This document shows, one piece after another, positions 17,733-18,352 of a stretch of 64,000 bases of DNA (the stretch's first letter is position 1; each line of letters opens with the position of its first letter). Under the pieces are notes generated by a model that worked only from the letters and a program-made list of their open reading frames with translations, did no database searches and was not told where the DNA came from. A program made the position numbers and the translations under genes. Origin of the DNA: Parcubacteria group bacterium (lineage in GTDB: Bacteria > Patescibacteriota > Minisyncoccia > Moranbacterales > UBA2206). The stretch is taken from NCBI GenBank assembly GCA_041659505.1, contig JBAZYF010000001.1, positions 35,654 through 99,653 on the forward strand. Direction: 5' to 3'.

Positions 17733-17807
17733 GAAAATTAATGTTTAAATTCTAATCCCCTAATACTAGCCTATTTAGGCAAATATTGGAAGATTAGGAC
17801 TTAAGTA

Positions 17808-17836
17808 TTGACTTTTTGGTTGATTTGGAGTATAAT
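17808..17836 (+). promoter_or_regulatory. Consensus sigma70-type promoter of antisense cassette 2
   Basis: TTGACT at 17808-17813, a 17 nt spacer, and TATAAT at 17831-17836. The flanking block is homologous to 14402-14530. Confidence 0.6.
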
Positions 17837-17890
17837 AATAGGTTGACAATAGTTTCAACAAACAAACTTCTTTTAAAAGGAGAACGAAAA

Positions 17891-18115
17891 ATGATTTTTC
17901 ATGCATTTAAAGACGAAGATGGGAAATACTGGGCGCAGTATGTAGTGGGAAGCAGTCACCTAATAGCTAAACTCAACTGCCTTAATCCTGTTCTTAGGCT
18001 GGAAAGCAACCCCGAGGAAGCTACGGAAGATTTCATAAAAAGAGTCTATCGAGAATGCCAAGAACGCAAGATCGAAGCAAGGAATCTTATCGACCCTAGC
18101 TCACGCAAAACTTAG
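17891..18115 (+). CDS. Small soluble protein (74 aa), possibly HicB-like fold
   Basis: ATG sits 8 nt after AAAAGGAG. Reads MIFHAFKDEDGKYWAQYVVGSS...ESNPEEATEDF, which loosely resembles HicB/UPF0150 antitoxins. The ORF-track entry 17816..18115 begins at an upstream TTG that overlaps the -10 box. Confidence 0.4.
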   Translation: MIFHAFKDEDGKYWAQYVVGSSHLIAKLNCLNPVLRLESNPEEATEDFIKRVYRECQERKIEARNLIDPSSRKT

Positions 18116-18122
18116 ACTATCC

Positions 18123-18225
18123 TGTCGGTTCAAGTCTCCGACTTGAATCATCCAGTTCTTAACCCTCTTTCATAAATCGCCGACTCCAATTGGATAGGCG
18201 ATTTATTATTTTCAAAAGAACTTTT
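18123..18225 (+). terminator. Terminator module, copy b
   Basis: GGTTCAAGTCTCCGACTTGAATC hairpin, then CCAGTTCTTAACC, then AATCGCC...GGCGATTTATTATTTT hairpin plus T-run, then TCAAAAGAACTTTT. Confidence 0.55.
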
Positions 18226-18238
18226 CCTTATATCCCCC

Positions 18239-18343
18239 TCGTCGGTTCAGGACTCTGTCCTGAATCACCCAGTTCTTAACTCTCTTTCGAAAGTCGTTTT
18301 CTCCTAACGGATTAAACGGCTTTTTTATTTTCAAAAGAACTTT
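18239..18343 (+). terminator. Terminator module, copy c
   Basis: GGTTCAGGACTCTGTCCTGAATC hairpin, then CCAGTTCTTAAC, then CCGTT...AACGGCTTTTTTATTTTCAAAAGAACTTT. Confidence 0.55.
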
Positions 18344-18352
18344 CCACTTTTG

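Follow-up and report, generated by a model that had tools for sequence, protein, structure and literature searches.

An apparent standard slot for fast-changing small proteins, rather than a HicB antitoxin, in the ATP synthase operon of a Parcubacteria-group bacterium

Why is the ATP synthase operon of a Parcubacteria-group bacterium broken at two places by small units that face it head-on, and what do these units encode? The question arises from a stretch of 64,000 nucleotides (hereafter the window; contig JBAZYF010000001.1, 656 kb long, of assembly GCA_041659505.1) in a metagenome-assembled genome (MAG) of the Parcubacteria group whose nearest AtpH relatives are annotated as Candidatus Moranbacteria or Moraniibacteriota. 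Here the atp genes lie on the minus strand in the order atpB-E-F-H / A-G / D-C, and a plus-strand cassette sits at each break, with cassette 1 between atpG and atpD and cassette 2, the subject of this study, between atpH and atpA. An earlier note had taken the 74-aa product of cassette 2 for a possible HicB-type antitoxin. According to our analysis, the cassette resembles a standard slot, occupied by small proteins that change fast, and not a HicB antitoxin. We lean towards the view that it is an autonomous, moron-like unit, in which a conserved frame holds a cargo gene that is exchanged by recombination between shared flanks.

Cassette 2 and its setting

The features described in the earlier note were found where it placed them or no more than 15 nt away (17745-18346, against 17760-18345), and its statement that the operon is broken twice by oppositely oriented units holds, with both cassettes on the plus strand and the operon genes on the minus strand. 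Cassette 2 is self-contained, and its frame is homologous to that of cassette 1 around a different small protein, namely a 74-aa soluble protein as against a 56-aa protein with two transmembrane (TM) segments (Table 1). The upstream blocks of the two cassettes (17745-17805 and 14397-14457) are 92% identical, and the promoter 29-mer, TTGACT-17-TATAAT, is intact in both. It occurs twice in the window (17808-17836 and 14493-14521), where 0 are expected. The block has dyad symmetry, as an nhmmer profile matches it on the reverse strand too, and it may serve as an operator. The same profile found no further copies of the frame in the 64-kb window, leaving two cassettes in total, each of them inside the operon. 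The cargo of cassette 2 has no TM-like segment (maximum 17-residue hydropathy 0.89), in agreement with its description as a soluble protein.

Downstream of the cargos, all three 3' modules of the window fold as a hairpin termed P1, a terminator hairpin and a U-tract (z = -5 to -7). Reading of the sequence and of the folds shows hairpins without a following U-tract on the atp strand. Two terminator modules are indeed present in cassette 2 (18124-18228 and 18241-18346), as had been noted, but they are not a simple tandem duplication, since module A carries the allele of the related contig L006 and module B that of the related contig L021. In cassette 1 and in both cassettes of the related contig L004, a hairpin of 33-36 nt (CCCCGTGA...TCAC.GGGG; window 14458-14492; L004 about 12206-12240 and 8951-8985, minus strand) is found between the dyad block and the -35 element, and moves the block by about three helical turns.

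A number of further candidates within the frame were discarded. A 7-bp pairing (AGTTCTT/AAGAACT) bracketing the terminator was not accepted as a structure, because it is situated past the U-tract and has no conserved counterpart in other genomes. Among possible outward-facing promoters for atpA or atpD, TTGAAA-18-TATACT is confined to type B leaders (see below) and TTCCAA-17-TAGTAT in the block reaches 7/12; no conserved outward candidate emerged across the cassettes. Rfam models gave only sub-threshold chance matches to the block, the leader and the 3' modules in the region 14300-19100 (miRNA models on the hairpins), and over the whole window the gathering score was reached by tRNAs only.

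Such an arrangement might also result from an assembly or binning error, that is, from a chimeric contig joining unrelated DNA into the atp operon, a concern that the earlier note had raised. Repeats flank the region and break short-read assemblies, and an independent Logan assembly of the run behind the MAG (SRR6484325) yields a contig that ends inside repeats on both sides. Over cassette 2 and atpH (17713-18879), however, this contig is identical to the window. In seven other assemblies (from NCBI, JGI and ENA) the same gap is occupied by a cassette with the gene order kept, and the atpA-side flank can be aligned with that of L006. The concern was thus not borne out, and we regard the probability of an artefact as practically nil. 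A JGI contig with an identical AtpH ends 108 nt past atpH and is therefore uninformative on variation of the cargo at the strain level. The open reading frame (ORF) of cassette 2 carries the NCBI locus tag WC848_00235.

A shared frame around unrelated cargos

Examination of atp loci around AtpH homologues (61-89% identical) and a metagenome scan with the promoter 29-mer brought to light nine further copies of the frame in eight related contigs of Moranbacteria type, giving 11 cassettes in nine assemblies. Seven of the nine lie in the atpH-atpA gap and one in the atpG-atpD gap, the ninth being situated between frr and the gene for an M50 peptidase, so that three distinct insertion sites are occupied, and all 11 cassettes are antisense to their neighbours. 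The metagenome scan returned L010 and L011 only, both genuine cassettes; the collection scanned evidently does not hold several of the frame-carrying samples. Common to the cassettes is a frame made up of dyad block and promoter, the beginning of the leader, an intrinsic terminator and the TTTTCAAAAGAAC tail, with leaders of 50-66 nt (10 cassettes measured) and terminators of -13 to -20 kcal/mol (10 cassettes folded). The cargos, 53-97 aa in length, comprise seven two-TM proteins, one lipoprotein-like protein and three soluble proteins, which are mutually unrelated. A scan of GTDB genomes with the pattern CCAGTTCTTAAC-N(33-62)-TTTTCAAAAGAAC gave two matches, in Ventosimonas and in a Terriglobales MAG, which were set aside as chance since they lie in coding regions and form no hairpins; the pattern was too strict, as CCAGTTCTTAAC is not conserved outside this genome.

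The conservation of the frame stands out against the divergence of the genomes that carry it. While four-fold degenerate sites of atpA are only 46-56% identical between the window and the related genomes, the promoter 29-mer including its spacer is 86-100% identical and the block 82-93%. The block is present in 11/11 cassettes, and the 29-mer is identical in eight of the 10 scorable ones and 86-97% identical in the other two; in L021 the -10 element and the leader differ. Conservation this far above that of the four-fold sites implies that the frame is either strongly constrained or repeatedly homogenised.

Against this constant background, cassette 2 can be compared with the cassette at the same site in L006 (L006_HA). 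By eye, about 95% of positions agree between the two over the block and the leader as far as about position 17878; similarity is then lost from about 17879 to about 18122, which covers the Shine-Dalgarno (SD) sequence and the ORF, and it returns from 18123 on and extends through the palindromic element that abuts atpH. The alleles of terminator and P1 are reassorted. The terminator of module A is the allele of L006_HA and L012_HA. That of module B departs from the L021 terminator at only two bases, which form a pair (UCC/GGA to UCU/AGA), and the P1 hairpin of module B is closest to that of L006. Two leader types occur at one and the same site, type B being common to cassette 2, L006_HA and L015_HA while other cassettes have a different leader, type A. 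Visual comparison with the 3' flanks of L004_HA, L004_GD, L010, L012 and L021 and with the window repeat D12 (20845-20910) shows the 16-nt fragment at the junction of modules A and B to equal the first bases of 'TTATATCCCCTTC...GGGAGAAGGTG', a palindromic repeat that other cassettes carry after the tail, and we read the fragment as a probable recombination scar. Homology bounded by breakpoints, terminators that match different relatives, reassorted alleles, the junction fragment and the mixed leader types together indicate that cassette 2 is a recombinational mosaic.

The P1 hairpin itself has been maintained through this divergence. Across five copies, 96% of its positions are paired and four of the 10 pairs have changed on both sides, a covariation score that was reached by 0/500 shuffles. 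Four G-U pairs are valid on the cassette strand only and one on the atp strand only. Covariation and strand-specific G-U pairs point to a role of P1 at the RNA level, in the transcript of the cassette.

Taken together, we propose the following course. The near-consensus sigma-70 promoter behind the dyad-symmetric block would start an mRNA of about 330-450 nt, whose short structured leader and strong SD sequence would lead to translation into the 74-aa orphan protein. The transcript would stop at one of the two intrinsic terminators, short of antisense entry into atpH, and the presence of two terminators would protect atpH against read-through in the antisense direction. Selection would keep the frame (block, promoter, leader start, terminator and TTTTCAAAAGAAC tail) constant, while everything between the ribosome-binding site and the stop codon would be swapped as a whole, most likely through homologous recombination in the flanks that different cassettes have in common, either within one genome or following DNA uptake. 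The outcome would be a different small protein in each lineage, mostly a two-TM membrane protein. As the terminators appear to work one way, a backward cassette would leave transcription of atpA and atpD intact where a forward-facing one would cut it off, and the antisense orientation is best explained by selection. Transcription and translation of the cassette, like the exchange of its cargo by recombination, we infer from the features described above.

Several points weigh against such a course. No cargo was seen in two slots or two genomes among the 11 cassettes, and exchange is accordingly deduced from breakpoints and mosaics and not from recurrence of a cargo. At this divergence, an unconstrained orthologous segment would likewise look unrelated. 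Neither a recombinase nor terminal inverted repeats or target-site duplications, the marks of a MITE or other transposon-like element, were found, the latter two in comparisons of filled with empty atpH/atpA and atpG/atpD sites. The invariant promoter spacer and post-terminator tail exceed what a simple promoter and terminator need, and the coding scores of the cargos, while positive, lie 1-2 standard deviations under those of ordinary genes. Nine of the 11 known copies are in atp gaps, a bias that stems from AtpH-based sampling, and a link to the atp genes is possible. Finally, the promoter, the terminators and translation are themselves read from the sequence.

Some of these points could equally be expected if no exchange had taken place, and the cassettes were ancient, vertically inherited units with a selected frame whose ORF drifts or is reborn in situ as in a 'gene nursery', orthologous cargos having diverged beyond recognition. 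Synonymous sites are near saturation (46-56% identity), so that weakly constrained sequence would not align. The divergence of the frame roughly tracks that of the host, with L015 the most distant in both; the codon scores of the cargos are below those of established genes, and the cargos are all singletons or orphans. However, positional orthologues with near-identical flanks differ in class and length (the 74-aa soluble protein of cassette 2 and the 73-aa lipoprotein-like protein of L006), and the breakpoints of homology are abrupt rather than graded. Terminator and P1 alleles have been reassorted among the window, L006 and L021, and leader types A and B are mixed at one site. Cassettes are missing in some close relatives and present in distant ones, and drift would not preserve stop-free runs of 53-97 codons in 11/11 cassettes. 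We therefore consider purely vertical descent rather unlikely.

The positions of the cassettes bear on a further explanation, according to which they are a cis-regulatory device of the ATP synthase operon and the ORFs are incidental. A strong convergent promoter and terminators ahead of atpA and atpD would then tune the delta:alpha and gamma:beta ratios by transcriptional interference, by antisense RNA, or by the block acting as a leader or processing hairpin of atpA and atpD. It fits this explanation that the cassettes directly precede the two genes whose products each complex needs in triplicate, that the position is kept in relatives down to 61% AtpH identity and that block and downstream start codon are often 25-40 nt apart. 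The TTGAAA-18-TATACT match faces atpA on the opposite strand and overlaps the -10 element of cassette 2, and the invariance of spacer and tail suggests that more is constrained than a plain promoter or terminator would require. Yet the opposite-strand match is missing from type A leaders, the frame also occurs between frr and the M50 peptidase gene, and each analysed cassette has a strong SD sequence and an intact, well-scoring ORF that a purely transcriptional device would not need. Close relatives moreover have compact, cassette-free junctions, so that the device would be dispensable: the atpH-atpA spacer is 35 bp in L016 (88% AtpH identity) and 37 bp in L014, compared with 827 bp here, and the atpG-atpD site of L006, at the position of cassette 1, is empty with a 37-bp spacer. 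In our view a regulatory device is unlikely.

Insertions of other kinds are also found in these operons. Sense-strand ORFs fill the atpH-atpA gap of L013 and L017 in place of a cassette. Further small insertions are found in the atp operons of relatives (L008 13498-13932; L013 12002-12373 and 7426-7758; L017 1584-2141). Between atpD and atpC they comprise a PDDEXK_3 gene and one that is 23S_rRNA_IVP/bAvd-like, the others being a sense-strand ORF for a 110-aa membrane protein and a 185-aa ORF between atpH and atpA. In this clade, the operon generally acts as a hotspot for the insertion of small genes.

Table 1. Parts of the two cassettes, genes and repeats around them, and cassettes of related contigs. 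Coordinates are those of the window; promoters, operator and terminators are predicted.
Feature	Position or site	Strand	Remarks
Cassette 2	17745-18346, atpA/atpH gap	+	antisense to operon
Upstream palindromic block (TTAAATTCTAATCCCCTAATACTAGCCTATTTAGGCAAATATTGGAAGATTAGGACTTAAG)	17745-17805	+	left end of frame; inner dyad GCCTA-TT-TAGGC; candidate operator
Sigma-70-type promoter	17808-17836	+	TTGACT (17808-17813), 17-nt spacer, TATAAT (17831-17836); 11/12 consensus matches
Leader, 54 nt	17837-17890	+	'type B' stem-loop GTTGA...TCAAC (17842-17859); conserved to about 17878
SD sequence AAGGAG	17877-17882	+	eight nt upstream of ATG 17891
Cargo ORF, 74 aa (MIFHAFKDEDGKYW...SSRKT)	17891-18115	+	ATG 17891, stop 18113-18115; orphan
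3' module A	18124-18228	+	-33 kcal/mol, z = -6.8 against shuffles; P1 18127-18149; CCAGTTCTTAAC 18152-18163; terminator hairpin 18172-18207 and U-tract; tail TTATTTTCAAAAGAACTTT 18206-18224
Junction fragment TCCTTATATCCCCCTC	18225-18240	+	between modules A and B
3' module B	18241-18346	+	-35.3 kcal/mol, z = -6.4 against shuffles; P1 18244-18266; CCAGTTCTTAAC 18269-18280; terminator hairpin 18289-18324 and U-tract; invariant tail 18325-18343
Cassette 1	14397-14876, atpD/atpG gap	+	antisense to operon; block 14397-14457, promoter 14493-14521, type A leader, 56-aa two-TM ORF 14584-14754, one 3' module
Cassette 1 3' module	14771-14876	+	third copy with CCAGTTCTTAAC and TTATTTTCAAAAGAACTTT
AT-rich palindromic repeat (AATTTCTAATTTCTAAACAATTTC...GAAAATTGTTTGAAAATTGTAAATTG)	17613-17744		between left end of cassette 2 and atpA start; outside frame
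Palindromic element of about 105 nt (TCTGAACCACTGATT...AATCAGTGGTTCAGA)	18352-18456		between cassette 2 tail and atpH, overlapping atpH 3' end
atpB	19971-20831	-	from ORF list
atpE	19671-19883	-	from ORF list
atpF	19041-19529	-	from ORF list
atpH (F1 delta/OSCP, PF00213)	18440-18841	-	cassette 2 oriented towards atpH
atpA (F1 alpha)	16074-17612	-	downstream of cassette 2 in operon direction; orthologues with ATP-synt_ab domains
atpG	15109-16068	-	from ORF list
atpD	12947-14359	-	from ORF list
atpC	12501-12941	-	from ORF list
L004_HA cassette	atpH-atpA gap		65-67-aa TM protein, start codon ambiguous
L004_GD cassette	atpG-atpD gap		55-aa two-TM protein
L006_HA cassette	atpH-atpA gap		73-aa lipoprotein-like
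L008 cassette	atpH-atpA gap		97-aa soluble
L011 cassette	atpH-atpA gap		58-aa two-TM
L012 cassette	atpH-atpA gap		73-aa two-TM
L015 cassette	atpH-atpA gap		53-aa two-TM
L021 cassette	atpH-atpA gap		67-aa soluble
L010 cassette	between frr and M50 (RseP-like) peptidase gene		79-aa two-TM

The nature of the cargo

The cargo ORFs resemble genes in their codon usage. With a codon model trained on the genes of the window (log-likelihood per codon), the annotated frame was the best of six, or within 0.003 per codon of the best (L004_HA), in 10/10 cargos scored. The scores range from +0.04 to +0.18 per codon, compared with 0.21±0.07 for genes and -0.30 off frame, and the ORF of cassette 2 reaches +0.069, the best of its six frames. 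From the base composition, the chance of a stop-free run of 53-97 codons was calculated as about 0.04 or less per cassette, and runs of this length in all the cassettes would hardly arise by chance. The GC content of the cargos (0.43) is close to that of the genome (0.42).

A strong SD sequence precedes each of the 10 cargos analysed by script, as against four of 60 ordinary genes of the window, and L021 has GGGGAG by eye. The four SD-bearing genes encode a LysM protein (1306-2724), two proteins of unknown function (2726-3661 and 50590-51465) and a pilin-like protein (60555-61238), and none of the atp genes has a strong SD sequence. An anti-SD motif has been detected in only about half of Parcubacteria (PMC9297842).

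Is the 74-aa protein of cassette 2 then an orphan HicB-type antitoxin, with a HicB-like N-domain, that has lost its HicA partner? The resemblance consists of a loose pattern (a β-strand, 'KDEDGKYW', a β-strand and an acidic helix), and a similar 'LDKDGNEW' is found in the cargo of L008 (a 7-residue match, E=0.79). In Pfam, the profile search that the earlier note had called for found neither HicB/UPF0150 nor any other family at E≤10 except Pec_lyase_N at E=0.11, and there was no match in NCBIfam, PHROGs, PADLOC or PDB sequences. The protein retrieved only itself, both in a word-indexed search of 5.8 billion clusters and in an exhaustive phmmer search of 1.84 billion representatives. HicB proteins have the fold order β-β-β-α-β. 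A single-sequence AlphaFold2 model, of low confidence (mean predicted local distance difference test score, pLDDT, 59), has the different order β-β-β-β-α, and its best Foldseek match to the PDB is not significant (E=0.65, TM-score about 0.3); the small uncharacterised proteins 3bid and 2yzt are among the non-significant matches, likewise with a TM-score of about 0.3. As the earlier note had remarked, a HicA partner is absent: no HicA-like or other plausible ORF besides the cargo lies between atpA and atpH on either strand. In other cassettes, unrelated membrane proteins occupy the same frame. Cassette 2 thus shares with HicB antitoxins its size and a loose β-β-β/helix pattern with an 'EDG-aromatic' turn, and differs from them in lacking a HicA partner as well as any profile or sequence match or significant fold match. 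The proposed HicB-like identity was not upheld, and we regard it as very improbable.

Among the cargos of the other cassettes, no Pfam or PADLOC family was found, and five form singleton clusters at 90% clustering; strict orphan status holds for the cargo of cassette 2 only. The earlier note would have counted small ORFs lacking conservation against its interpretation. The cargo does lack conservation, but the frame around it is conserved, and since a variable cargo in a conserved frame is the defining property of this family, we do not take the non-conservation of the cargo as evidence against it.

The prevalence of hydrophobic cargos raises the question of whether the cassettes are modules akin to type I toxin-antitoxin (TA) systems, in which membrane-damaging toxins would be restrained by complementary read-through RNA of the host operon and freed when transcription of the operon is lost. 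Seven of the 11 cargos are proteins of 53-79 aa with two TM-like segments and a basic tail, and like type I loci such as hok/sok, ldr, tisB/istR and aapA/isoA, the cassettes combine short hydrophobic ORFs, strong promoters, structured leaders, an obligatory antisense overlap (here with an essential operon) and an intergenic, patchy distribution as in addiction modules. In contrast to these loci, the cassettes revealed neither a conserved toxin family nor a dedicated sRNA gene: known toxins form sequence families whereas the cassette cargos all differ, PADLOC and Pfam gave no match, and no promoter or terminator of a dedicated antisense sRNA was found. Four of the 11 cargos are not TM peptides, those of cassette 2, L008 and L021 being soluble and that of L006 lipoprotein-like. 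Read-through of the atp operon is the only antisense RNA that could be deduced from the sequence, a conserved promoter/terminator pair on the opposite strand not having been found. A TA-like role is in our opinion quite improbable.

Related systems and significance

A search of the full-text literature found no description of cassettes of this kind. The closest concepts are phage morons, integron cassettes, the plastid gene psbN (PMC1802608), type I TA loci and modular intergenic repeats.

Morons such as gene 15 of phage HK97, situated between two genes of the tail operon, share with the cassettes an own promoter and terminator, a place between adjacent operon genes, a patchy occurrence among relatives and, in many cases, a small membrane protein as cargo; gp15 of HK97, for one, resides in the inner membrane and excludes superinfection (PMC3594210). 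Cassette 2 has, at the level of sequence, an own promoter (11/12), two terminators and the character of an insertion absent from close relatives. Unlike morons, the cassettes lie in a chromosome of the candidate phyla radiation (CPR), have a GC content equal to that of the genome, all run against the host operon and use one standard promoter/terminator frame for different cargos. An origin from a phage or plasmid was rejected, as blastn gave no match in phage and plasmid collections and four frame patterns had no match in IMG/VR. With housekeeping neighbours, no phage matches and genome-like GC content, the resemblance would therefore be one of function, and the cassettes moron-like rather than phage morons.

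Integron cassettes are likewise interchangeable, carry mostly orphan small ORFs in a standard context and turn over rapidly between close relatives, but the cassettes described here possess a promoter and a terminator of their own, are solitary and have breakpoints that do not fall at a fixed base. Reading of the boundaries revealed no attC core (RYYYAAC...GTTRRRY), no dedicated attC model having been run, and no integrase was present in the gene tables around the cassettes, to which the search was limited.

The small membrane-protein gene psbN lies antisense within the plastid psbB operon. Like the cassettes, it is located on the opposite strand inside an essential bioenergetic operon, with an own promoter and a transcript antisense to its host. 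The psbN protein, however, is conserved and has a fixed function, whereas the cassettes conserve the frame and not the protein.

Short conserved non-coding hairpin modules in within-operon gaps, varying in copy number as do the 3' modules (one or two per cassette), are also known as pneumococcal BOX, neisserial Correia and REP/BIME elements. These carry no ORF, while the cassette modules bracket a predicted cargo and have no terminal inverted repeats or target duplications. The cassette gaps also carry three other palindromic repeat families. Every cassette is followed by one of three families of long-hairpin repeats, ahead of the stop codon of the upstream gene. Palindromic TGTCATCCTGAGCGAAGCGGAGCGGAGTCGAAGGATC...GCTCAGGATGACA lies 3' of the tail of cassette 1 (14885-15033) and also downstream of the L008, L011 and L015 cassettes. 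The repeat TTATATCCCCTTCTCC...GGGAGAAGGTG(G/C)CCGAAGG(G/C)CGGATGAGGG, at 20845-20910 and 52676-52741, supplies one arm, the first, of a palindrome that measures about 190 nt; it also occurs 3' of cassettes in L004 (twice), L010, L012 and L021, and as the 16-nt fragment between the modules of cassette 2.

The two repeats that flank cassette 2 differ in their distribution. The AT-rich palindromic repeat on the atpA side has a second copy at 62648-62758 (89-94% identical), in another within-operon gap. L006 lacks it, and about 35 nt separate the block from atpA there. The repeat seems to have expanded from the native AAATTAGAAATT motif of empty sites. On the other side, one arm of the 18352-18456 palindrome provides the end of the atpH reading frame, its final three codons and stop (LNH*). 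L006 has this element too (about 6283-6385), together with the same AtpH C-terminus, while in AtpH orthologues that lack the element the final residues are LGR, LVN or LVS.

Elsewhere in the window, a 142-nt repeat made of GTCATTCCCGCGAAGGCGGGAATCC inverted repeats fills the atpF-atpH gap (18855-18996) and recurs 15 kb away (34208-34349) with 85% identity, and the GTCATTCCCGCGAAGGCGGGAATCC motif is also present at 22791-22815. GC-rich tandem or dispersed repeats of 52-63 nt (GCTACGGCATGGCTACGGCGTGAC...; 44343-44607 and 44991-45169) come right after 87-nt tRNA genes (44276-44362 and 44914-45000), the first of them beginning within the 3' end of the tRNA. Four to five 21-nt tandem repeats (TCCAAACTATCCATTCTTTTC; 31889-31993) in the ORF 31756-32082 give rise to a 7-residue protein repeat. 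The gaps 899-1306 and 3661-4034 share TTGTCAAT...GCCTAAA(T/C)AAG(G)CCT (motifs at 940-1050 and 3800-3900), which loosely recalls the dyad block (GCCTATTTAGGC) and may represent another promoter or operator family.

Returning to the reading of cassette 2 as a moron-like unit with exchangeable cargo, our guess, by analogy with the morons of phages, is that the cargos are strain-specific envelope, phage or host-interaction proteins. A wider form of this reading, which strikes us as possible but doubtful, is that of a clade-wide plug-and-play system of Moranbacteria-type Parcubacteria: unrelated small-protein genes would be swapped at a high rate within a strong standard frame served by a frame-specific factor, giving rise to a hypervariable, strain-specific small envelope proteome. 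Such a system would be integron-like without attC or integrase, and would lie antisense in essential operons, from which it is not easily lost. The factor could be a regulator that binds the dyad block and the spacer, both of them invariant, or it could serve recombination by way of the likewise invariant tail, or do both.

If the exchange of cargos is real, ultra-small symbionts with little accessory genome would keep a slot whose contents outpace the turnover of the genome and are mostly tiny membrane proteins invisible to homology-based annotation. The 29-nt promoter, the 60-nt dyad block and the 19-nt tail would then provide a searchable handle for strain-specific small proteins of CPR bacteria, and the frame ready-made promoter and terminator parts for a phylum without genetic tools. 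For annotation, the cassettes serve as a warning, as their non-coding part is conserved and their coding part is not, so that conservation filters would drop these genes. They may further offer a natural system for the acquisition or birth of orphan genes, in an essential ATP synthase operon that would tolerate head-on transcription units.

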